Virus genome (UHGV): UHGV-0075595
Length of the DNA: 35,420 bases
Source of the DNA: a virus
Direction: 5' to 3' (one strand)
This document shows, one piece after another, positions 1,935 through 29,899 of this stretch. The translations under genes and the position numbers were made by a program. The notes below the pieces were generated by a model, which was not told the origin of the DNA, searched no databases, and saw only the letters and a list, made by a program, of their open reading frames with translations. Numbering within the stretch: position 1 is the first letter of the stretch; each line of letters starts with the position of its first letter.

Positions 1935-4397
1935 TCAATTCCCTGTTAATTGCAAAACTTGCTCTTCCAGCTTTTTAACCCTGCGTCTCATCATCGCAGA
2001 TTCCAGAATCAGAGCCTCTTCATAACGGATACCGTAACATTCACCAGCCTCGACGGCTTCGCGTACCAGAACCTTTGTCTGTATAAGTGGGTAAACTCCT
2101 GCAGAATGCTCTTCTTCCGTCACATCCCTGTATTCTGCCGGGGTCTCATTCCACTTGTCATAACAGATAAATGCCAGTCGTGACACATCTATGCCTTCAT
2201 TCTGAAATACACTGATAACATGCTGCGCAACTGCACCAAAGTGCCATCTTGCTCCGTCTTTACCTTTCACTTCGATCCTGTCAAGGTACTGGTATGAAAC
2301 CCATTCCACTCTTTCCCATGCGTCCAGTATTTTCTCATCAATAACCTCTGGAGCAGTCTTGAAACGCGCATCGGACAGCACCGTAAACGCTGACTGGGTA
2401 AATCCCCCCGACCATGCACGACCAGCCAACCCAAGAGAATAAGTATTCGTTGTCGATGGTGTCATGGCTGAATCAGAAAACTGTATATATTCTGAATTTC
2501 CAGTAGATATTCGAATATTTCCATTTATTAGCGACATAGTGCCTTTAGTATTATCACTATTGAATAATTTCAATTGCGAACTTATACCGCCTCCCACAGC
2601 CAGAGATACATCGCCTTCAGCAAGCATTCTGAATTTATCTGCAGAAACAAGCGTCTGGTTAGCAAGGTTAAAATATTTAACCCACCATTCAAAACGCCCT
2701 GACATAGTCCCAACGTACTGACCAAGCGCAGGGACGTGAACAACATTGCTATTTGTAGTGCCGTCTATACTGGAAATACCAGTCACCGCTGATGCAGAAC
2801 TCAGAATATTATTTCTGTCACCCGGATGTTTAATTTCAACAAAGTTCCTGATACACCCTTCCTCGAAGGTAACCACGCCGGAAGAACTATACATGGGGAA
2901 TATTGACGCATAATTACTGCGTGCAGCATCTAAGAAACGAATGGTTGTAGATGTCTGCAGATCTCCTGATTCATTTTTCCCATCACACCCAGTCATTAGA
3001 ATATTACTGGCAATATTATTATTTCCCTGAACGGTGACTCCGTGCGCCTGCTTTGCGTCCGATTCAGAGTAATCAACCAGCACATTCGAAATCAGGTTAC
3101 CAGTCCCCTTGCCAACAACTACTGCGGCGTATTTTGGGTTGTTAGCCATTACACTGCTAATGATATTATTCGTTGGGGCAGTTTCCGTCTCAGTTCCATT
3201 GTAAACAACGTGCTGACACTCTTCACCAATAACATTGCTGACAATGTTATATTTTGCTGCTGTTTTAAGTTCCACTGCACCAAACTGAGGATAATTTCTG
3301 GCTATCACACCATCAATTAGCGTATTTTGCGATGAATCAAAAAGCACACAACCTGCTTTTTTATTATTTGCGAACCCTAAATACTCTCCTCTTATATCTC
3401 TAACAATGTAACCTGACGGAATACCATTATTCGGATAAGCGATCAAGCTAAATCCTGTTCCTCGCGTATTTGTAAATCTGATATTTTTAACCGATACATC
3501 ATGGCCACCTGAAAATGACACCTGGTGTCCCTGCACACTATCATCTGATTTATTTCCCATAATTGTTAGCGTACTAAGCATGCCACCATCGGGCATGTTA
3601 AAAACCAGATGATTACCATCTCTGTCATACTGTTTTATCGTTCCCCCACCTGTTCCGTACAAGCCACAACGTGAAAGAGAAACTAAAGATGTATTGAATA
3701 CCCCTTCCGGAACAAAAACACTGCTAAACGAATGTAATGATTTTGTAAAAGCATCCTTGTTATCATTTAAGATTCCATTTTGAGCTCCAAAATCCTTAAT
3801 GCTGACACCATCACGCATCTTATCCTGGAACGTTCTGTATACCGCTCCAGAACCATACTGAATAAACCAACCAAAACCACCAATAACTCCGGCGATTGCA
3901 GCATCGACATAATTACGCATTGAGCGATTATTTACAGCGTCCTGCTCAAGTGATGGATCGGCAAGGTTAGATATTCTGTTTTGCTTTGCATCGTAATATT
4001 TTGCAAGCAAAGATGGTTTCATCAATGCACGTCTGAACCACCCAAAACATCGCTGGATCAGCATCGTCAGGTAGTCAAATGCATCCTCATGAACTTCGGG
4101 GAAAAATTTTCCCTGATTGCGAAGATCAGTCTCCTGCACCACATCAAGCACACGCTCTATCGTGATTCGCCAGCCAGCAGCAAGCGGCGACGGAAGAACC
4201 ACTGCACCGCCACTATAAGTTCCCGCCCCTGTTACCGTATAACCAGCATCCAGCACTAGTTTTGTAACGTTACCGTTAAGGTCAGACACCTGAACAACCA
4301 GGTCGGATTTTTTGAAAATACGGAAGGTATACGGAAATGATGTCGTAACGCCGTTACCTGTGTATTCGTTGTGGTCAACTTCGGTTGAGACCGTCAT
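1935..4397 (-). CDS. Tailspike / tail fiber with N-terminal particle-binding domain, central right-handed beta-helix (depolymerase-like) and C-terminal intramolecular chaperone (peptidase S74-like) domain
   Basis: 820 aa; N-terminal YTGNGVTTSFPYTF motif; central repetitive N/G/S/V-rich beta-helix-like region; C-terminal LSDARFKTAPEV...WHFGAVAQHV...ICYDKW motif; GGAGA RBS. Confidence 0.85.
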   Translation of the reverse strand: MTVSTEVDHNEYTGNGVTTSFPYTFRIFKKSDLVVQVSDLNGNVTKLVLDAGYTVTGAGTYSGGAVVLPSPLAAGWRITIERVLDVVQETDLRNQGKFFPEVHEDAFDYLTMLIQRCFGWFRRALMKPSLLAKYYDAKQNRISNLADPSLEQDAVNNRSMRNYVDAAIAGVIGGFGWFIQYGSGAVYRTFQDKMRDGVSIKDFGAQNGILNDNKDAFTKSLHSFSSVFVPEGVFNTSLVSLSRCGLYGTGGGTIKQYDRDGNHLVFNMPDGGMLSTLTIMGNKSDDSVQGHQVSFSGGHDVSVKNIRFTNTRGTGFSLIAYPNNGIPSGYIVRDIRGEYLGFANNKKAGCVLFDSSQNTLIDGVIARNYPQFGAVELKTAAKYNIVSNVIGEECQHVVYNGTETETAPTNNIISSVMANNPKYAAVVVGKGTGNLISNVLVDYSESDAKQAHGVTVQGNNNIASNILMTGCDGKNESGDLQTSTTIRFLDAARSNYASIFPMYSSSGVVTFEEGCIRNFVEIKHPGDRNNILSSASAVTGISSIDGTTNSNVVHVPALGQYVGTMSGRFEWWVKYFNLANQTLVSADKFRMLAEGDVSLAVGGGISSQLKLFNSDNTKGTMSLINGNIRISTGNSEYIQFSDSAMTPSTTNTYSLGLAGRAWSGGFTQSAFTVLSDARFKTAPEVIDEKILDAWERVEWVSYQYLDRIEVKGKDGARWHFGAVAQHVISVFQNEGIDVSRLAFICYDKWNETPAEYRDVTEEEHSAGVYPLIQTKVLVREAVEAGECYGIRYEEALILESAMMRRRVKKLEEQVLQLTGN

Positions 4398-4501
4398 GTT
4401 AAATCTCCAGATAGTCGCAGCACCCGTTGCGCCGCATATCTGGTTATTCTATTACCCAAAAAACCATATATGGATAGAAAGACTGTGAATATGAATAGAT
4501 A

Positions 4502-4516
4502 TTACCTTTCAGGTAA
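4502..4516. promoter_or_regulatory. Operator-like palindrome TTACCTTTCAGGTAA (member of ATTACC-N5-GGTAAT family)
   Basis: Perfect inverted half-sites; identical 17-mer TATTACCTTTCAGGTAA also at 23570..23586; lies between divergent tailspike and SOS-gene starts. Confidence 0.55.
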
Positions 4517-4555
4517 TTTGCAAAACGTGCTGGATAGCAAACAAATTATTTGCTA

Positions 4556-4571
4556 CTGTATAAATATACAG
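4556..4571 (+). promoter_or_regulatory. LexA (SOS) box CTGTATAAATATACAG overlapping a -10-like TATAAAT
   Basis: Exact CTGT-N8-ACAG with AT-rich centre, extended TACTGTATAAATATACAGTT; 23 bp upstream of ATG at 4594. Confidence 0.6.
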
Positions 4572-4593
4572 TTATTGCATGGAGAAGATTAAG

Positions 4594-4851
4594 ATGCAGC
4601 AGTATCACTATCCACTGGAAGAGGGATTTACCGAAAGGATTCACACGCCGGGAGGCGTCAGGTCACTGGTGGAGGGATCGCACTTGATGAAATTACTCCG
4701 GGATCTCGATAAGGATGGATTTAATGTCGATGGCCCACTTGCCGAACTGACTGCACTGATTAACTACGTCACCAGCTCACAGATGTCTATGCAGGATCTG
4801 CAAACACATCTCGACTATTGTGCCGAACAATTACGAAAACAAACCAGATAA
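4594..4851 (+). CDS. Small protein (85 aa) paralogous to the C-terminal domain of the downstream AntA-domain antirepressor; putative SOS-induced immunity modulator
   Basis: GGAGAAG RBS 6 nt upstream of ATG; shares a colinear motif series with the C-terminus of ORF 5169..5825 (IH-[ST]P-[GS]GV ... LM-LL ... DG-V-G ... ELT ... [DI]LQTH--Y); LexA box in its promoter. Confidence 0.55.
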   Translation: MQQYHYPLEEGFTERIHTPGGVRSLVEGSHLMKLLRDLDKDGFNVDGPLAELTALINYVTSSQMSMQDLQTHLDYCAEQLRKQTR

Positions 4852-4854
4852 GGT

Positions 4855-4897
4855 TTGAAATTACCAAATGGAGTGCTTATATTTACCTTTGCGGTAA
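4855..4897 (+). promoter_or_regulatory. Sigma70-like promoter (TTGAAA-17-TATATT) with operator TTACCTTTGCGGTAA overlapping -10/+1
   Basis: -35 at 4855..4860, -10 at 4878..4883, palindrome 4883..4897 with extended arms ATTTACC/GGTAAAT. Confidence 0.5.
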
Positions 4898-4924: not shown

Positions 4925-5010
4925 AGTAATCGGGCACTGGCAAAATCCAGTGCCGGGATTGGTCTCCCGGATTACTAAGTGGCGCATACCACGCCAGACG
5001 TGGTTTTTTT
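4925..5010 (+). ncRNA. Candidate structured leader / small RNA upstream of the antirepressor gene (nested hairpins ending in an intrinsic terminator)
   Basis: Hairpin GCACTGG-N6-CCAGTGC (4934..4953), CCGGGA-N6-TCCCGG (4953..4970), outer pairing AGTAATCGGG/CCCGGATTACT, then terminator; track ORF here starts with TTG and has no RBS. Confidence 0.3.
4988..5010 (+). terminator. Rho-independent terminator (ACCACG-ccaga-CGTGGT followed by T7)
   Basis: 6-bp GC-rich stem, 5-nt loop, T-run; sits between promoter at 4855 and antirepressor ATG at 5169. Confidence 0.55.
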
Positions 5011-5168
5011 ATGCGTATAGCACAGTCATGCCAGAATTATGGTGGGCTGAATGGGGGTCCGAAAGGACGCCGGTACCACTTAGGCCGGTAAGACCAACTC
5101 CGTTCAGTTCACCACCATCTGATTGGTCTCAGCGGTGGTGATGTAATTCGCTAAGTGGAGACGCCATC

Positions 5169-6630: not shown

Positions 6631-6702
6631 GTGGACGAAACAAAAGTCAGTGCTACACTCATTGACGCCACATTGAGGTGGCTTATAGATGGAAATTTCA
6701 CA

Positions 6703-6864
6703 ATGAAAAAAGCATTTGCTGCACTGTTCGTTTTGTTGTCTCTGGTAGCTTCAACTCAGGCCTTTGCCGGTCGTTGTCAGCACGACAGCGACACTGCTGC
6801 TGACGGCTCCCGCTGCGGTGGGCGTTCTGCGGATTCCCGCCCGGGTGGCGGTGGCATTCGTTAA
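6703..6864 (+). CDS. Candidate small secreted peptide (53 aa; signal peptide MKKAFAALFVLLSLVASTQAFA then Gly/Arg/Asp-rich 31-aa region with two Cys)
   Basis: In-frame ATG inside track ORF 6631..6864; possible promoter TTGACG-16-TATAGA at 6662..6689; weak RBS, so uncertain. Confidence 0.25.
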   Translation: MKKAFAALFVLLSLVASTQAFAGRCQHDSDTAADGSRCGGRSADSRPGGGGIR

Positions 6865-7323: not shown

Positions 7324-7512
7324 TTATTTTATTATTCTTCCGAACAATACAATTCCGAATACTACAAAGCCGAACCATGCCGCTGCACGCAACAGAGATT
7401 CCAATTGAAACCCATTTTTATCAAAATGTATGAATAGCATAAAAACGCTGCACATATTAGTACAATAAAAGTTATTTGAACCATCATATCTCCTTTTATT
7501 GCGGAGTGACAT
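7324..7512 (-). CDS. Small hypothetical membrane protein
   Basis: 62 aa with C-terminal hydrophobic helix; weak RBS, overlaps end of upstream gene. Confidence 0.25.
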   Translation of the reverse strand: MSLRNKRRYDGSNNFYCTNMCSVFMLFIHFDKNGFQLESLLRAAAWFGFVVFGIVLFGRIIK

Positions 7513-9970
7513 CCTGTGGTCGCCACCAGTATGTCTGGTTAAACTCTTTCTTCGAACGTTGCTCCATTTTACGCAAATAGCCTGGTGAAAAATACTCCTG
7601 CATCTGGTTAAAGATCATGTGATCGAGAGCCGCCTTCAAGTACCAGAGATTCGCACCAGGCATCAAACCTTTCCCCAGCTTCACCAGATCACCACCAGTC
7701 TGCTCACTCTTCCCTTCCACAGCATTTAACGGTATGCCCTGAGCAATCTTCACTACGTCATCAACCAGACCAGCTACCGGGCCAAGCATCGACGCCAGCG
7801 CGCCGCTTCCGTACCTAGTGTGATCTGACAATAAAAAGTCACCGTAAAGGCCAAGACCACCACCTTTCAGTAGAGCACCAAGCCAAAATTTAGCAGCATC
7901 TTCTCCTGTCATCTCGCGAGGATTACGACCAGACGCAAGGTCGTTAAGTTGCTGCGACAAAGCGCCAAGAATGGTCGTACTGGCAATAAACGTCGCAATA
8001 TATGCCGCACGCCCACCAGCAGACGGCATACCCATAGCGCGTGACCAGTGACGCATAACCACCGAGATAGGGAACGATTTAAACAGGAAAACACTTCTCG
8101 TTAATTCACCTTTCCATGTTCCACGCTGAATACCAGAACCGGTTATCAGTTGCTCACGTGCTCCCGGTGTAATAACAGCCATATCAACTTCTTCAGTTAC
8201 GGCACCGAGCAGTTTACGCATTGCCTCAAATTTCACGCGTTCAGGCTCACCAAGATGTTTAACTGCTGAATCAGGGATACGCATAATGCTTTCCGGTGTC
8301 AGCATCGTATTATTGCCGTTCCCCCAGTCCTCCTGTTGCGCCAGCTTCCATACGCTCCAGTCTGTGTCAGTAATCCCTTTGCTTTTCAGGATACGAAAAT
8401 CAGAATCATCGAGGCTACGAAGGTCTGGTGTCCGTGACACTACTTCTCCCAAGCTTCCCATCATGGTTACGCCATAGGCGCGCTTGTGCGCATCTGACCA
8501 TGCTGTAAGCCCACTGGCACGCATTACCGCCGTTGCAGCCCAACGAGACACAGACGGCCCCATATTATCCATCGCCCAGCGGTTAACGCTGCCAAGTAGA
8601 GATTCCATCGCCAGACCAGCGCGGCGCGCCCGCGCAAGTTCTGTACGGTTCGTTGGGTCCATAGCTTCAAGCTGGTTGCGGAATAACTGGTTCATTGGAA
8701 GGTTGGTAACCTTCGCAGACAGATACATGGTTCCAAGATCAGAGAACGATGACAGCAACGCGGATCCGAGTCTGCTGGCAACCAGCCAGTTGCGGATATT
8801 GTCAGACCATCGCGCGATGTGCGGATTCGCTACAGGCTGTGTCTTTCCGGAAATAAAGTTGTACAGATTCTCTGTGTTGTTCGCCAGCCGCTCGACTTTA
8901 CCGGTTTTACTCGGGTTAGCTGTTGCCGTTTCTGCCTTCACCTGATCAAGAAGAGAGCGGAAAACATGATCGGGGTTTGGGCCATATGTTTCCACCAGTG
9001 CAATATCTTTACTGATACCTTCCAGGTGACCGACCATGATTTCCCATAGAGAGCGATCGCCATAAAGTTGCTGATATTGAAGATAGGAATCTGCATCTTT
9101 GAAATGTATCTGTCGTGATGCATTACCACGGTTAGCACGTGCGCCGGAAATTCGCATTCCGGTATCAGTAAGCTTATTCAACCCACCAGTAGCGATCGTG
9201 TTATAAGCCTCTCCAAGAAATGCAGACAACTCGGCATCGTTCATCAGTTGTCCATCGGCTCGGGTATAATATTTGCGATCCAGCTTACCTATAACATCGC
9301 TAACCCATTTATCTTTTGATACCGCCCCAACCTTTTCCATAGAATGATGTTGAGGGATCCCCCAGTTTTCGAGATAGCCAATGTCCCCACCAGCATCATT
9401 AAACCGGCGGCGCAGCAGCTCTGTAACTTCTCTCCACGCCTTAGCACCTTTTCTTGCTTTAGCATTGCCAGTATTTTGCCCCCGCATTTCATATACCAGG
9501 TCACGTACGCCAGCTTCATCTTCAAACAGACCAAAAAAGCGAGGATCAACTGCTTCGAATGCCTCCTGCAATTGACTCAATGCATAATCACGGGTGGCTT
9601 TTGTTCTGGATTCAACAGAGAGGAAATTCGATTTACCGTCTGCATTAAAAGCAATAGTACGGTTAAGAGCGCCAAGTTTCCCATCAGCCCCTTGATAGCT
9701 ATTGATAAATTTATCCAATCTCTGACGTGCGGCTATAGTGAGGGCCACACGACGTTTCTTTAATGCCGCTTCTCGCTGTAATTCTTCAGATGCCAATTGT
9801 GCTGCACGATATAGCCGCTCTGATTCGGAAAGTTGTCTCCACGACATCGGGTCATCACGAGCAATAGAGCGCATATTTCGATAAATGCGGTCTTCAATGT
9901 TCTGTATTTCTCGCGCCGTTAACGTGCGCTGCGCCGCCTGCTGGACCGCTTGTATACATTCCTGTCTCAT
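7496..9970 (-). CDS. Large internal virion / ejection protein (824 aa)
   Basis: Position in late operon after tail genes, analogous to T7 gp15/gp16 core proteins; no catalytic motif recognised. Confidence 0.55.
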   Translation of the reverse strand: MRQECIQAVQQAAQRTLTAREIQNIEDRIYRNMRSIARDDPMSWRQLSESERLYRAAQLASEELQREAALKKRRVALTIAARQRLDKFINSYQGADGKLGALNRTIAFNADGKSNFLSVESRTKATRDYALSQLQEAFEAVDPRFFGLFEDEAGVRDLVYEMRGQNTGNAKARKGAKAWREVTELLRRRFNDAGGDIGYLENWGIPQHHSMEKVGAVSKDKWVSDVIGKLDRKYYTRADGQLMNDAELSAFLGEAYNTIATGGLNKLTDTGMRISGARANRGNASRQIHFKDADSYLQYQQLYGDRSLWEIMVGHLEGISKDIALVETYGPNPDHVFRSLLDQVKAETATANPSKTGKVERLANNTENLYNFISGKTQPVANPHIARWSDNIRNWLVASRLGSALLSSFSDLGTMYLSAKVTNLPMNQLFRNQLEAMDPTNRTELARARRAGLAMESLLGSVNRWAMDNMGPSVSRWAATAVMRASGLTAWSDAHKRAYGVTMMGSLGEVVSRTPDLRSLDDSDFRILKSKGITDTDWSVWKLAQQEDWGNGNNTMLTPESIMRIPDSAVKHLGEPERVKFEAMRKLLGAVTEEVDMAVITPGAREQLITGSGIQRGTWKGELTRSVFLFKSFPISVVMRHWSRAMGMPSAGGRAAYIATFIASTTILGALSQQLNDLASGRNPREMTGEDAAKFWLGALLKGGGLGLYGDFLLSDHTRYGSGALASMLGPVAGLVDDVVKIAQGIPLNAVEGKSEQTGGDLVKLGKGLMPGANLWYLKAALDHMIFNQMQEYFSPGYLRKMEQRSKKEFNQTYWWRPQDVTPQ

Positions 9971-21291: not shown

Positions 21292-21584
21292 TCCTGTTCA
21301 CTGGCCTCTTTGGCCATCTTCAAATACTGTTCAGGGCAATGCGCCATAACGCGCTGAAACAGTTCCAGCGCCAGATTGCGTTGCCCCTCATTAAATGCCA
21401 TTGCCATAGCGTCCATCGGTGAGATAGCGGAAAACACACGGCCTTTCTCCAGCACCGACCAGACAACGCGACGCCCCTGTTCACTGCTCATGACAAAGCG
21501 AATGTCATCAATTTCACGCTGTGCCATGTCACGTTGCTTACGGGCGTTTTCTTCTTTCAGTTGATCGTCTTCGTAATCTGTCAT
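21288..21584 (-). CDS. Hypothetical head-assembly protein
   Basis: 98 aa, charged; overlaps portal stop and scaffold start. Confidence 0.4.
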   Translation of the reverse strand: MTDYEDDQLKEENARKQRDMAQREIDDIRFVMSSEQGRRVVWSVLEKGRVFSAISPMDAMAMAFNEGQRNLALELFQRVMAHCPEQYLKMAKEASEQE

Positions 21585-23260
21585 TGTGATTGCCCACCCT
21601 GACCACTAACTGCATTCGCCATAGCTGAAAACACACTCGGATCCGAAGTTTTAGCTTCGCTTAGCGTCTTGGCCCCCTGTGCCGCCGCCATCCCCATCGC
21701 CATCATTTGTTGCTGCTGTTGTTGCTGTGCCCGTTGCTGGCGAGCCTGCTCAACCTGTTCCTGCGGAACAATGACGGTTGGAGACACTCCGGACATATCA
21801 GCGAATGCATCGATCGCCTGATCAACGTTGAGTTTGTCGAGAGCTTCTGGTTTCGCTTGCGCAAGTTGACCAATGAAGTTGACCGTAGACGCCAGACTGG
21901 ACAGGCCGATAGACTTCTGCGCCTGAGCCATGACGGAAATGTATTCGACCTTCAGGGGCATACCTTCCATCGCGTCAGGCGGTGGCGGCAGCATGTTTTT
22001 ACGCACCATCATCGAGAAAGCGCGGTCAATGAGAGGATTAAGACATTCGTCGTTCAGACGCTCCAGAACCGGCCCCAACATCAGAAGTTTTTCTTCTTTC
22101 ATTTCGATCACTGCTTCAACAGGCATCGAGCGGGTATTGATGTTCTGCAACATCATGAACAGATCGACAAAGTAGGCGCTGTTAATGATTTGACGAGTGT
22201 CCTGAATGTCTGCCACCAAATCTGCTGTACTGGGGTTAACCAGATAAGCAGGCCTGAAACCATCCTGACCAGTAATCTGATCGATATACGTGATGTCGCC
22301 AGGAAGAAGGGAGGCACGCTGATTCTTGAGGGAAGTCGGAGCAACCATCGGCGGATTGGTGGCTTTATCAATCAACTGCGACTTGCGCTTCTGGAGAAGC
22401 TGCAATGCCTTAACAGGTCCAAGCGCCAGCATACCCGGGCATGATGATCCATAAACATCTTCGCCATTAACTTCCCAGCGCGGAGCCATAATTGGAAACT
22501 CATCAAATCCGGACTCACGCAACAACTTGTCGTTATCGCCACCAACCTCGTAATAAACCGATTTGAATGGCTTGTTCTTGCTATCCAGCTTCGATGTATC
22601 GCGGTCAATGTTCGGGTAAACCGAATGCATCACGTCAATCCACTTCTCGTAGGTGCCGCTTTCCCACATGCTTTTTACGGATTCGCTGACGTTATTTAGC
22701 CCGAACTCCTGAACAAGCTGACGAACAGTCATAGAGAACTTGCGAAAACAGGTGTCCACACTGCCACGAGGTGAGTTAGCCAGGTAGTAACTGCCTATCG
22801 GGAATGGCATTGTGCGAATGATGTCCTCGTCATCCTCCAGCACCGCCATTGCACCAGTGCTGTATGTGCCGAGGCTTCCGTATAACTGCGGAAGAGACTG
22901 GTAGAGATTCGACTTATTGAACATATCGTTCATGCGGTTCTGCACCGCCTCGAGCCACAACTTAACAGGACCATAATCCATCATTTCAGGATCTGGCGTA
23001 GCCAGGCGAAACCACGGACGCGCAGGGCTTGTGATGCCTGACATCATGCCGCTGGCGAGAGTGCGCGCCGCCATAGTCCCGGTCGAATCAATAATGCGTG
23101 TATTGCGTCGATCGTTACGGTTGACCTCAGAAGTCAGAAAGCGGGAACCACGCGGGTTGATGTAATCACTCAACTCGCGCCAGTGCGGCTCGAACGACTG
23201 ACGCTCGCTTTCAAGTTGTGCGAACTGTTTGTTCAATCGCTCTTTAGTTGTTTCCGCCAT
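21581..23260 (-). CDS. Portal (head-to-tail connector) protein, T7 gp8-like
   Basis: 559 aa; C-terminal QQRAQQQQQQQMMAMGMAAAQGA tail resembles T7 gp8 C-terminus; GGAG RBS. Confidence 0.75.
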   Translation of the reverse strand: MAETTKERLNKQFAQLESERQSFEPHWRELSDYINPRGSRFLTSEVNRNDRRNTRIIDSTGTMAARTLASGMMSGITSPARPWFRLATPDPEMMDYGPVKLWLEAVQNRMNDMFNKSNLYQSLPQLYGSLGTYSTGAMAVLEDDEDIIRTMPFPIGSYYLANSPRGSVDTCFRKFSMTVRQLVQEFGLNNVSESVKSMWESGTYEKWIDVMHSVYPNIDRDTSKLDSKNKPFKSVYYEVGGDNDKLLRESGFDEFPIMAPRWEVNGEDVYGSSCPGMLALGPVKALQLLQKRKSQLIDKATNPPMVAPTSLKNQRASLLPGDITYIDQITGQDGFRPAYLVNPSTADLVADIQDTRQIINSAYFVDLFMMLQNINTRSMPVEAVIEMKEEKLLMLGPVLERLNDECLNPLIDRAFSMMVRKNMLPPPPDAMEGMPLKVEYISVMAQAQKSIGLSSLASTVNFIGQLAQAKPEALDKLNVDQAIDAFADMSGVSPTVIVPQEQVEQARQQRAQQQQQQQMMAMGMAAAQGAKTLSEAKTSDPSVFSAMANAVSGQGGQSQ

Positions 23261-23274
23261 TTCAATGACTCCGG

Positions 23275-23481
23275 TTACTGACCAAGCAGCGTTTTACCGC
23301 TGGTATTAGCGGTTGATGTGTCGCCCTGAGAACCGGTAAGCAGCGTAGAACTACGACCAGCAGCAGCGCGACGGCGACGAGTTTCTTCGTCGCGGGCATC
23401 AACAACGGCGGCATCCTGCTCCTGTGGTGCTGCCTGAACTTCTGGTGTTGCAGGCACTGATGGTGAGCTACCCATGCACAT
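23275..23481 (-). CDS. Small acidic/Ser-rich hypothetical protein, first gene of late operon
   Basis: 68 aa; translation-initiation region GGAGTCATTGATATG nearly identical to that of portal (GGAGTCATTGAAATG). Confidence 0.45.
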   Translation of the reverse strand: MCMGSSPSVPATPEVQAAPQEQDAAVVDARDEETRRRRAAAGRSSTLLTGSQGDTSTANTSGKTLLGQ

Positions 23482-23571
23482 ATCAATGACTCCGTACGCA
23501 ATTAAATTATTACCAATTTAACCACATATGATTTATTTATCGTAGAAGGTTGACATTTAACGCGTGAATTA

Positions 23572-23586
23572 TTACCTTTCAGGTAA
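23572..23586. promoter_or_regulatory. Operator-like palindrome TTACCTTTCAGGTAA in the late-operon / tRNA control region
   Basis: Identical to site at 4502..4516; preceded by TTGACA (23550..23555) and AATTAT; half-site TTACCAATTTAACCA at 23510..23524. Confidence 0.55.
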
Positions 23587-23908
23587 CCAAAGAGCTCATT
23601 CTGGTTACTAACCTGACTGGCTTGTCGTTAAATTAAACAGGTGGAGTGAGCTTTTATTTTGAGCAGTACGGCGTATGGCACATGCGCCGATAGCGGTCTG
23701 GATACGTTTAAGGGGCACCCTCCCTTGCTCGGGCAAACGAACCAGGTAGCCGGAATGTGCAAGTCGAGCGGTTTTATTCCGCGCACGGGGATTCACCATC
23801 CCGGCGATTCGGTGTGACGCCTCGGAAGAGACGAGGGTACAACGATGAGAGCATTTATGGAGCCGCGACAAAGTGTGGCGCCTTAACAGGCTAAGTGCTC
23901 TCAGCGTT

Positions 23909-23985
23909 GTGGCATTAGCTCAGTTGGACAGAGCAACCGCCTTCTAAGCGGTTGGTCGCAGGTTCGAATCCTGCATGCCACGCCA
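23909..23985 (+). tRNA. tRNA-Arg (anticodon UCU, reads AGA/AGG)
   Basis: Manually folded cloverleaf: acceptor GTGGCAT/ATGCCAC, D-stem GCTC/GAGC, anticodon stem ACCGC/GCGGT with loop CTTCTAA, T-arm GCAGG-TTCGAAT-CCTGC, discriminator G, encoded CCA. Confidence 0.85.
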
Positions 23986-23994
23986 GAATCACGC

Positions 23995-24474
23995 CTAAGG
24001 ACCGTGATGCCAGAAGTTCCAGGTGCTTGGCGGTGATGGTTTCCCTTGAACAGCCCATTCAAGACCATCTTTTTGACCTTGGAGATAATCAAGCGGCAAC
24101 TCTTCATGATTACTTGCAGGTTCGGCACTATGAAGCATGGCAGCGCGGCAGGCGTTCCAGCCTCTCACCTCTGCAATAGCGGCAACAGCATCAACCGCGT
24201 ACATGCTAAGAGGATTAGGCATTGGTTTTTCTTCCGGTACTACTGGCACTGGAGGGGTGGCGTAGAGTGGAACTCCTCCCCCTCCACCAGAAAATTCATT
24301 GCGAGCGTTATACTCACGACCATCTGCGTCATCACGCATCCACGCCACCGGTTCTGCTTCCAGCGATGCCAGTGCAATTTCATAAGCACGGCGCTCAATA
24401 TTGTCTCGAACGTCCAGGCTGCCTATGCGCTCTTTGATTTCTTTAATCATTTCTTTGTCGGTGAAAGTGCTCAT
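23995..24474 (-). CDS. Hypothetical early protein
   Basis: Start at ATG 24474 with perfect AAGGAG RBS 6 nt upstream (track start is upstream TTG). Confidence 0.45.
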   Translation of the reverse strand: MSTFTDKEMIKEIKERIGSLDVRDNIERRAYEIALASLEAEPVAWMRDDADGREYNARNEFSGGGGGVPLYATPPVPVVPEEKPMPNPLSMYAVDAVAAIAEVRGWNACRAAMLHSAEPASNHEELPLDYLQGQKDGLEWAVQGKPSPPSTWNFWHHGP

Positions 24475-24475
24475 A

Positions 24476-25210
24476 TCAATCTCCTTTGGTACCAATGTTT
24501 ACAGCCTGGCAAGCCTCTTTGAGCACCCAGTCAACAGCGTCTTTCCATGCTCCGGTTTCGACTGGCGGATTCTCACGCTTTACCTGTTCATAGAAGCACA
24601 CTGCTTTAACCAGTCCTTCCGGTACTACTGGTGATGGCTGTTTAGCTTCTAAATCAGCAATTCTGTCAACCACGGCATCTACGGCATCTGAAAAGCCGAA
24701 CCAGTTACTCCACTCCGGCCTATCCCCGGTTGCTGCAAAGTACATATCAGCCAAAGCAGACTCAGCATGGTCACGCTCGTTAATGAGTTGCTCTTCGCTT
24801 TTCTCCAGTTCAGCAATACGCTTACTTCCATCCGAGATAACACCTTCGTAATACTCGCGCTGCTCGTTGAGTTTTGATTTTGTCTCCTCAAGCTCAACAC
24901 GCAGTTTCCCTACCGTTAGCGCAATATCCTCGTTCTCCTGGTCACGGCGTTTGATGTATTGCTGGTTTCTTTCCCGTTCATCCAGCAGCGCCTGCACTAC
25001 TTCAGGGTTGAAAGCTGCGATATAACGAGCGTTGTTCTCTGCGTTGTTCTGTCCATCAAAGCCGGTCCATTTGATAACGTCTTCACATCGTTTATCACCA
25101 GGTGTATGCACCGCATATGTACCAGTACCAGACGAAATAAATGCGACCCATTCACCCTGTGTTGCCAGTTGCGCCGCCTCACGCAGTGCCTGATAGTCAA
25201 TCTTGTTCAT
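24476..25210 (-). CDS. Hypothetical early protein with central coiled coil (resembles lambdoid Ea22/Ead-type proteins, unverified)
   Basis: 244 aa; AGGGTG RBS; E/R/K/Q-rich helical middle region. Confidence 0.4.
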   Translation of the reverse strand: MNKIDYQALREAAQLATQGEWVAFISSGTGTYAVHTPGDKRCEDVIKWTGFDGQNNAENNARYIAAFNPEVVQALLDERERNQQYIKRRDQENEDIALTVGKLRVELEETKSKLNEQREYYEGVISDGSKRIAELEKSEEQLINERDHAESALADMYFAATGDRPEWSNWFGFSDAVDAVVDRIADLEAKQPSPVVPEGLVKAVCFYEQVKRENPPVETGAWKDAVDWVLKEACQAVNIGTKGD

Positions 25211-26717: not shown

Positions 26718-26732
26718 TTACCCCTGAGGTAA
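26718..26732. promoter_or_regulatory. Operator-like palindrome TTACCCCTGAGGTAA overlapping RBS of gene 26370..26714
   Basis: Perfect half-sites; 62 bp from site at 26780. Confidence 0.5.
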
Positions 26733-26779
26733 TTAAAAACCACATAAGACACGAAATCAATAGATTTTAGAATATTTTA

Positions 26780-26794
26780 TTACCTCATAGGTAA
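26780..26794. promoter_or_regulatory. Operator-like palindrome TTACCTCATAGGTAA downstream of P-like gene
   Basis: Perfect half-sites with ATTACC/GGTAAT extension; adjacent weak hairpin plus T7 run on minus strand. Confidence 0.5.
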
Positions 26795-28725: not shown

Positions 28726-28740
28726 TTACCTTTGAGGTAC
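28726..28740. promoter_or_regulatory. Operator-like palindrome TTACCTTTGAGGTAC (one mismatch) between Cro-like gene terminator and downstream genes
   Basis: Half-site mismatch in right arm. Confidence 0.4.
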
Positions 28741-28745
28741 GAATA

Positions 28746-28773
28746 GATATGAAAAGACCGCCGGATGGCGGTC
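28746..28773 (-). terminator. Rho-independent terminator after Cro-like gene (GACCGCC-atcc-GGCGGTC then TTTTCATAT on minus strand)
   Basis: 7-bp GC-rich stem at 28756..28773, T-rich tract on minus strand; 23 nt downstream of stop at 28796. Confidence 0.55.
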
Positions 28774-28795
28774 TACAGAGGGTTGTTGCCAGATA

Positions 28796-29026
28796 TCATG
28801 AGTAGAAGAAGTATGCCAGTTCCGCTTTTGAGCGCAGCCATTGTCTTGTTTTACAGGCTTTAAAAAGCCCATTCATCAATACCTTACCTGGCATTTTGCG
28901 CTTACCTGTTAAGTGAGTCTGGATATAGTGACTCGTCGTTCCGGCTTCCTGTGCGAAGGCTTCACGCTCATCCGGAGTAAGTGCAAGCCAGTGCTTTTTG
29001 AAATCGAAATGTCCGTTATCGCTCAT
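28796..29026 (-). CDS. Cro-like HTH regulator
   Basis: 76 aa; helix-turn-helix-like AFAQEAGTTSHYIQTHLTGKRKMP; divergent from repressor gene across operator cluster. Confidence 0.45.
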   Translation of the reverse strand: MSDNGHFDFKKHWLALTPDEREAFAQEAGTTSHYIQTHLTGKRKMPGKVLMNGLFKACKTRQWLRSKAELAYFFYS

Positions 29027-29062
29027 AGCTATTGCCTGATATTTATTTCAGATAATAAATAT

Positions 29063-29125
29063 TCACCCATAAGGTAACAAAAATCAAGGATAGTTACCTA
29101 TGGGGTGCATTTACCTGTTGGGTAA
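29063..29125. promoter_or_regulatory. Immunity operator cluster (three sites: TCACCCATAAGGTAA 29063..29077, TTACCTATGGGGTGC 29094..29108, TTACCTGTTGGGTAA 29111..29125)
   Basis: Three related palindromes in the 154-bp gap between divergent Cro-like and repressor genes; first two are inverted near-copies of each other. Confidence 0.6.
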
Positions 29126-29822: not shown

Positions 29823-29899
29823 TTACCTAATGGGTAATTTTTTTAACTCATATCTATTGACATCAAACCAAATACGCATAATTATTACCTCAACGGTAA
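29823..29899 (+). promoter_or_regulatory. Left-operon-like promoter (TTGACA-17-AATTAT) flanked by two operators (TTACCTAATGGGTAA 29823..29837; TTACCTCAACGGTAA 29885..29899)
   Basis: -35 at 29857..29862; operators 62 bp apart centre to centre; downstream operator overlaps -10/+1. Confidence 0.55.

Follow-up and report, generated by a model that had tools for sequence, protein, structure and literature searches.

What is the business of a leader of about 320 nucleotides (nt), without a convincing open reading frame (ORF), that separates an operator-associated promoter from the tRNA-Arg(UCU) gene in the region 23482-23985 of the virus genome UHGV-0075595 (35,420 nt; the whole of this stretch is referred to below as the window)? 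The region belongs to an Escherichia coli prophage of the phiV10/epsilon15 type (Uetakevirus), and we put at about 0.6 the probability that positions 23551-24050 form one repressor-controlled, purely non-coding transcription unit of that prophage. Sequence comparison shows that the leader (23667-23911) is a pseudoknotted structured RNA, which we call X, of a family that is undescribed as far as our searches show. The initial annotation, which allowed that the leader might be a regulatory or processed RNA, pointed in the right direction and undersold it: the leader is a conserved multi-helix family and is probably processed. The unit is made up as follows, the + strand being that of the tRNA.

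23551-23579, + strand: probable promoter, with -35 TTGACA (23551-23556), a 17-nt spacer and -10 TACCTT (23574-23579), recognised by its conserved architecture
23572-23586, no strand assigned: repressor operator TTACCTTTCAGGTAA, palindrome TTACC-N5-GGTAA, overlapping the -10
23590-23655, + strand: P0, leader hairpin of the P7 type with a 13-base pair (bp) basal stem, from the minimum-free-energy fold
23667-23836, + strand: X core, about 170 nt, from covariation
23669-23689, + strand: hairpin P1 with a GCA loop, from covariation
23698-23701 with 23742-23745, + strand: helix P2, from covariation
23745-23763, + strand: invariant 19-mer GGUAGCCGGAAUGUGCAAG (DNA form GGTAGCCGGAATGTGCAAG), from conservation
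23788-23791 with 23799-23802, + strand: helix P5, from covariation
23794-23797 with 23811-23814, + strand: pseudoknot of loop CACC with GGUG, from covariation
23820-23824 with 23832-23836, + strand: helix P6 with a GAAGAGA loop, from covariation
23839-23910, + strand: P7, the hairpin that closes X, about 19 bp long, its apex branched and variable, from fold and covariation
23909-23985, + strand: tRNA-Arg, anticodon UCU, CCA encoded, from ARAGORN and the Rfam tRNA model
23988-24008, + strand: hairpin AUCACG-N9-CGUGAU, conserved first element of a small RNA (sRNA)-like 3' module
24009-24028, + strand: single-stranded linker of the 3' module
24029-24050, + strand: 5' half GGCGGUGAUGG of the terminator hairpin T1, truncated by a deletion at 24050|24051

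The evidence that X is an RNA lies in its base changes, which were measured by our own pair counts. In an alignment of 17 sequences covering six helices (P1, P2, P5, the pseudoknot, P6 and P7) 94.8% of the cells are paired, compared with 84.9% in shuffles and 27-47% when the partners are slid; double changes occur in 18 of 41 pairs, and none of 500 shuffles attains any of the observed measures. Among 57 non-redundant cores the paired cells comprise 1261 Watson-Crick, 132 G-U and 8 A-C combinations, and this imbalance of G-U over A-C indicates an RNA of the + strand, on which the tRNA also lies. One pseudoknot pair is C-G in 52 of these cores and A-U in the other five, and is broken in none; the pseudoknot becomes AACC/GGUU twice, in a Kosakonia prophage as well as in the mEp460 group, with no one-sided change in any member. 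The closing hairpin P7 has a z-score of -5.77 against shuffles and double changes in 6 of its 15 pairs, and its 3' strand extends into the first two bases of the tRNA. For its counterpart P0, nhmmer finds that a P7-like module immediately precedes X in 12 related Uetakevirus loci. The absence of a convincing ORF, as first proposed, is borne out by comparison: no frame in 23587-23908 is kept, and across 57 relatives the spacing of the conserved blocks is evenly distributed over the three mod-3 classes.

We define the family by the P1 hairpin UAUGGCACAUR, AGCGGUC, the 19-mer, the P5 loop YCACCA with its partner GGUG, and the P6 loop GAAGAGA. All of these are present at 23667-23836, together with compensatory change on the + strand. 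Over 23640-23910 the window is identical to the copy L002, the reference row of our alignment A4, and a profile from that alignment finds the relatives with E values of 1e-33 to 1e-60. Three further pairings or motifs were tried and rejected. RNAalifold's pairing UCYGG/CCGGA gives way to P2 as CYGG/CCRG, which CCAC/GUGG and CUGAC/GUCAG variants support; a boxA-like reading of the P7 3' strand (UGCUCUUU) fails, as the segment is base-paired, varies with compensation and has the boxA core in a minority of members only; and pairing of the GAUUCG of X with tRNA T-loops fails, as the positions vary. Separately, in Salmonella phage SPN1S (L008) the P2 loop and the T1 loop share the 13-mer UUCCCUUGAUGCU, and other members have a recurring UCCYUKR motif in these two loops.

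Database searches did not name the family. An Infernal scan against Rfam of 23300-24200 at E<=10 accepted the tRNA and gave no X match and no riboswitch aptamer or other family; at gathering score the whole window yields the tRNA, isrK and C4 only. Literature searches by exact sequence and on the phiV10 tRNA, the P1 ban operon, Eru-type Stx phages and mEp phages turned up no description of X.

The unit is expected to answer to the prophage repressor. The palindrome TTACC-N5-GGTAA, one mismatch allowed, occurs at 12 sites in the window as against 0.53 expected, a count that none of 100 shuffles reaches, and this establishes a real operator family, the presence of an operator having been noted at the outset. 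The copies (4270-4897, 5898, 23572, 26718-26794, 28726-29125 and 29823-29899) cluster at the immunity and early regions and mark the repressor-controlled promoters of the prophage. The homologous site in the epsilon15 record is annotated as a repressor binding site, and the unit would accordingly be off in the lysogen and fired on infection or induction. Of the promoter first suggested, TTGACA stands as the -35; AATTAT (23568-23573, spaced by 11 nt) does not stand as the -10, whose place is taken by TACCTT at the normal 17-nt spacing, and the worry over a short spacer falls away. Transcription would start near 23586. A sigma-70 promoter should match at least 4 of 6 positions in the -35 and in the -10, at 16-18 nt spacing; a generic scan gives no promoter or useful terminator in the intergenic region, and it misses this promoter because TACCTT matches at 3 of 6. 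We compared 15 related loci besides the window, from several host genera: TTGAC(A/C)-N17-TACC(T/C)T with its overlapping operator is kept in 13 Uetakevirus-type loci while the spacer sequence differs, which argues that the promoter is real. Of the two exceptions, one has TTGGCA as its -35 and the second has its operator at the limit of the examined stretch.

The tRNA itself is known, ordinary phage cargo. The Rfam model (RF00005) scores 23909-23985 at 73.3 bits against a gathering score of 29, ARAGORN places the anticodon tct at position 35 of the tRNA, and the sequence folds as a cloverleaf above threshold with a 7-nt anticodon loop and a 3' end reading ...AUGCCAC-G-CCA, so the claim of a complete tRNA with encoded CCA was correct. 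RefSeq E. coli prophages and several phage records already annotate it. That it is cargo, not the remnant of an attachment site, also proved right: the same tRNA occupies the corresponding place, with phage genes on either side, between the gp3/portal and terminase genes in the free phages phiV10, typing phages 9 and 10 and phiv142-3, and is placed equally in Klebsiella ST512-KPC3phi13.3 and Salmonella SPN1S. In the phage genes of the window AGA is used 6.6-7.1 times and AUA 6.7-8.0 times per 1000 codons, and the tRNA would supplement AGA decoding. Comparable tRNA cargo is carried by other temperate coliphages, among it ileZ-argN-argO in Stx phages and the tRNA genes in the ban operon of P1. 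As there (and in the annotation of P7), rare-codon tRNAs (Arg-UCU, Ile-CAU) lie within phage operons and AGA and AUA are several-fold commoner in the phage genes; the tRNA of the window shows no difference from this group and is a normal member.

Beyond the tRNA the unit continues in modular form. The position after P7 is a slot for either a true tRNA (Arg-UCU here; in P1-like phages Ile-CAU lies immediately upstream of X) or a tRNA-like RNA. The latter is 130 nt long in lambdoid phages, with an acceptor-type helix UGUGGUG/CACCACA followed by A-CCA, and a 127-nt RNA in the same slot (L098, 1077-1203) scores 43.9 bits with the tRNA model. T-arm-like sequences GGTTCGAATCC and GGTTCGATTCC are inserted in the variable apex of P7 (L010, L104), and the P7-type hairpin recurs alone by nhmmer, as P0 in the Uetakeviruses, as downstream copies in lambdoids and several times in the P1-like ban operon. 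The AUCACG hairpin is kept after the slot in both Uetakevirus and lambdoid loci, and an intact T1 (GGCGGU...ACCGCC-UUUUUACA) is found in L002 and in every context type except the P1-like. In the Uetakeviruses T1 is followed by another hairpin and a terminator T2, the U-tract of which abuts the Shine-Dalgarno sequence of a variable cargo gene. Two loci (L068 and L104) keep the whole non-coding unit of X, tRNA-like RNA, T1 and T2 with no ORF of at least 60 amino acids between it and the convergent terminase gene.

In the window this 3' part has been cut. The intact prophage of E. coli AR_0086 and the window run in parallel as far as 24050, where the window skips 3.76 kb, a deletion that takes the 3' half of T1, T2, a Gp49-family gene, TerL, TerS, two small genes and part of a DUF551 gene, and makes the ORF at 23995-24495 a fusion product. 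No terminase or Gp49 homologue occurs anywhere in the window, and none of the 5426 complete E. coli genomes contains the 24050|24051 junction. The deletion leaves promoter, P0, X, P7 and tRNA intact.

The 3' module has a likeness of its own. In related loci the hairpin, the linker AAUUGCUGUGUGUAGUCUU and the terminator align over the full length of RprA (RF00034); the 19 nt of AAUUGCUGUGUGUAGUCUU are identical to the RprA consensus, and in the best relative (L042, 49.7 bits, below the gathering score of 70) the AUCACG hairpin aligns with the middle hairpin of RprA. In the window, by contrast, the linker differs, the terminator is lost and there is no RprA match. The look-alike loci are L042 (7558-7677), L077 (5260-5370), L014, L016, L036, L058, L110, L085 and L104, and from this resemblance the phages concerned may make an RprA mimic early in infection.

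X extends far beyond this phage type. Positions 23668-23910 are about 82% identical to unannotated DNA of the lambdoid phages cdtI, mEp460, Stx2c, Stx2a, 2H10 and Ayreon and of phage P7, and 70-73% identical to DNA of Klebsiella, Salmonella and Enterobacter phages; 92 phage records in all, these groups among them, show the similarity. The leader is thus an RNA family common to lambdoid and P1-like phages, which excludes host-derived flanking DNA. The 19-mer is found exactly in at least 120 IMG/VR contigs, forming 39 clusters at 93% identity. An independent search with the 5'-hairpin motif, one genome per species, gave 25 loci in about 20 species, nearly all Enterobacteriaceae, and 22 of these loci contain the exact 19-mer. 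Of the 5426 complete E. coli genomes 1824 contain the core, and 547 of its places are on plasmids; no annotation lies under X among the E. coli matches listed: in the most thoroughly annotated of organisms, X goes unannotated in a third of complete genomes. In about half of the loci X has a tRNA as its neighbour on the same strand. One viral contig (L027) has two copies on the same strand 800 nt apart (6653-6852 and 7458-7615). In epsilon15 (L003, 3998-4200) only the first 65 nt or so are kept (P1 and AGCGGUCCGG), after which X diverges into a terminator and there is no tRNA, so this type phage is a deletion variant of the unit.

The genomic settings of X have repressor control in common. Downstream of the cI stop codon mEp460 has a terminator, two OL operators of the OR type, pL (TTGCAT-N17-TATCTT) and then X, which begins about 40 nt past the inferred pL start; the cI terminator, OL and pL lie 40-100 nt upstream of X. 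About 60 lambdoid loci have the order cro, cI, X, early-left genes, and in phage P7 the C1-controlled ban operon holds X, with tRNA-Ile on one side of it and ban on the other. From these placements X is always within an operon under direct prophage-repressor control. A PHROGs scan finds no N-like protein among the first genes downstream of X in the lambdoid phages, and gene order places X at the predicted 5' end of immediate-early transcripts both in Uetakeviruses and, after pL, in lambdoid phages without a recognisable N. Stx-converting phages are among the several unrelated temperate groups that have X at the head of their early transcripts, and P1-like plasmid prophages carry it as well.

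One homologous unit has been seen as RNA. The sRNA-17 of a mEp460-like prophage in E. coli K1 RS218 was defined as a 193-nt RNA by 5' and 3' rapid amplification of cDNA ends (RACE) and Northern blotting, with a 5' end at CGUUGUGG, regulation by ArcA and no Rfam homologue (Front Microbiol 2020;11:574833, PMC7719688). We located it on mEp460 (L004) through the published primers, which map to 3237-3430: the RNA starts at the 3' end of X/P7 (CGUUGUGG) and stops at T1. The authors' promoter fragment (2988-3237) is X itself, and their quantitative PCR (qPCR) amplicon (2988-3383) spans X from its 5' end onwards. The strand is therefore transcribed, an RNA end forms at the X junction and T1 terminates. 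sRNA-17 belongs to the same conserved non-coding unit, its slot being filled in the window by tRNA-Arg and the truncated 3' module. It is not X, and sequence identity fails, none of the tested primers matching the window and all matching mEp460: lambdoids have the 130-nt tRNA-like RNA, the window a true tRNA, and only the T1 architecture is shared, an equivalence of position. Probably sRNA-17 arises by processing of the pL leader transcript, of which it would be the 3' part. A virulence-associated sRNA would on that account be reinterpreted as part of a longer early transcript, and its supposed promoter as a structured RNA.

Several points weigh against reading 23551-24050 as one repressed non-coding unit built around X. 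The expression data for the unit come only from this lambdoid homologue in another strain, and its authors read X DNA as a promoter that binds ArcA (PMC7719688). P1-like copies of X lack helix P7 and T1 and lie mid-operon, 60-100 nt before ban, and no single model of context fits all cases of X. In the window the promoter joins a perfect -35 and a 17-nt spacing to a weak -10 (3 of 6) and a predicted start site, and the unit lacks its terminator, so that normal function may be lost. The excess of AGA codons is set against an E. coli background of about 2 per 1000.

As to what the RNA does, our committed guess is that X would be a functional RNA binding a conserved host component and not a passive leader, RNase P cleavage before G23909 (23908|23909) separating it from the tRNA. 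We tentatively favour, at somewhat under even odds, an action in cis on its own transcript or transcription complex, affecting passage through T1/T2 or use of the downstream message. The promoter-proximal position, the terminators before the first ORF, the lack of a recognisable N and the 5'-untranslated region (UTR) position before ban all favour a cis leader. If X does control terminator read-through, it would be a protein-free replacement for N/nut in many lambdoid and Stx phages, with a bearing on induction.

It is also possible, with the chances distinctly below half, that X is a released, trans-acting product by analogy with the tRNA-linked RNAs GOLLD and ROOL. Release is favoured by single-stranded segments that hardly vary from one host genus to another, by the processing-type hairpins and tRNAs on the flanks, by the retention of the unit before no ORF of at least 60 amino acids (L068, L104), and by the analogy itself. 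GOLLD and ROOL (RF01998, RF03087; Nature 2025, PMC12286853) are likewise structured RNAs of phages and prophages adjoining tRNA genes, and GOLLD sometimes holds tRNAs inside a variable linker (PMC12286853), as X abuts tRNAs and takes T-arm-like inserts in its P7 apex, a resemblance in genomic habit only. They differ in that no sequence or model match exists (E<=10 in the window, E<=1 in eight related loci), in size (roughly 580-800 nt against 170-250 nt for X) and in that X is confined to phages of Enterobacteriaceae, in repressor-controlled early leaders. Were X released, it would supply a genetic model for the unexplained association of phage tRNAs with large structured RNAs. What is left of our belief goes to some other action or to both. 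A bolder and rather doubtful form of the proposal, resting on the same analogy, is that X represents a new class of phage RNA, a machine or decoy that binds RNA polymerase, the ribosome or a tRNA-processing or tRNA-targeting enzyme, or that assembles with itself, and that would be made in the first minutes of infection from repressor-controlled lytic promoters. It would then be the first tRNA-linked ornate phage RNA of a genetically tractable host, accessible in E. coli, Salmonella and Klebsiella prophages and in P1-like plasmids.

The best surviving alternative, although we consider it unlikely, is that X has no role as a free RNA and is purely a cis antitermination or attenuation leader resembling HK022 put or the rrn leaders, in which nascent X modifies RNA polymerase or blocks Rho to allow passage of T1 and T2. 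X is indeed promoter-proximal in the Uetakevirus, lambdoid and type-D contexts, strong conserved intrinsic terminators stand between it and the first ORF, with the T2 U-tract meeting the Shine-Dalgarno sequence, and T1 terminates in vivo, as the end of sRNA-17 in lysogens shows. In X-bearing lambdoids cI is followed by several hundred nt of non-coding DNA (about 780 nt in Stx2a_WGPS2), and no N gene is recognisable. The put RNAs of HK022 (Nat Commun 2022, PMC9378689) are similarly placed, just past an early promoter with terminators beyond, in a lambdoid phage without N-type antitermination. They are, however, about 70 nt long with two stem-loops, and X is followed by a tRNA or tRNA-like RNA; there is no sequence similarity to putL, which was also read directly, and no nhmmer match of X in the HK022 immunity region at E<=10. 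The tRNA between X and the terminators tells further against a purely cis role, as RNase P cleavage would cut the tether, and so do the P1-like copies without T1/T2 and the retention of the unit in L068 and L104, where it has no downstream cargo.

A riboswitch aptamer that senses a host metabolite or tRNA and so gates early phage expression would also be a 5' leader of about 170 nt with a pseudoknot and highly conserved junction nucleotides, placed before a terminator or, in phage P7, the ban ribosome-binding site. We regard this as improbable: X matches no Rfam riboswitch class, 150-400 nt of tRNA, tRNA-like RNA and hairpins lie between it and T1 with no competing terminator pairing apparent, and there is no candidate ligand.

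More improbable still is that the conserved sequence acts as DNA, a promoter and ArcA-binding region for the downstream RNA, with the tRNA having its own start just upstream. The RACE end at CGUUGUGG, the use of X DNA as a promoter fragment and the ArcA regulation of sRNA-17 (PMC7719688) would suit such a role. The helices nevertheless change by compensation with the one-strand RNA signature of 132 G-U against 8 A-C, the qPCR amplicon of the same study starts at the 5' end of X and shows it transcribed, no sigma-70-like promoter is present within the X of the window, and the RACE end coincides with the predicted processing junction.

We give almost no credence to the idea that the structure serves the opposite strand, as a 5' UTR or RNase III site of the late gp3/portal message: in the epsilon15 record the late-gene strand of the homologous intergenic region does carry annotations for an RNase III site and for a repressor/IHF site, and the - strand folds well too (z -2.5), but there G-U pairs turn into A-C mismatches and pairing drops from 94.0% to 85.6%, lambdoid and P1-like copies have no late operon opposite, and epsilon15 itself keeps only the stump of X. 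An RNase III site would call for a helix of about 20 bp; the P0 and P7 stems are 13-19 bp long, and the epsilon15 annotation is on the opposite strand.

The surroundings of the unit are those of a phiV10-type phage. Over 23260-24000 the window is 98-99.9% identical to phiV10, vB_EcoP_PAS61 and O157 typing phages 9 and 10, and within the same range to prophages of about 500 complete E. coli genomes. The local order of portal gene, small gp3-like gene, intergenic region and tRNA-Arg matches these phages, and the neighbouring ORFs are on the - strand, so the tRNA is divergent from the gp3/portal operon, in agreement with the initial annotation.

21581-23260, - strand: portal ORF
23275-23481, - strand: gp3-like ORF
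23500-23546, - strand: block of 45 nt (AATTAAATTATTACCAATTTAACCACATATGATTTATTTATCGTAG) that precedes the gp3-like late gene, a possible late promoter or activator site
23995-24495, - strand: DUF551-type fusion ORF

The 45-nt block lies in the same intergenic region and outside the RNA unit. It is almost identical across the 16 Uetakevirus-type loci examined while its flanks differ, and from this conservation it may be a late promoter or activator site.

Elsewhere in the window isrK (4934-5010, + strand) and the C4 antisense RNA (5035-5119, + strand) both score above their Rfam gathering scores and adjoin three of the operator copies (4270-4897). With these operators the two RNAs constitute an immI module of the P1/P22 type, for antirepressor control, and the isrK/C4 pair is found in mEp460 as well (L004, 706-894).

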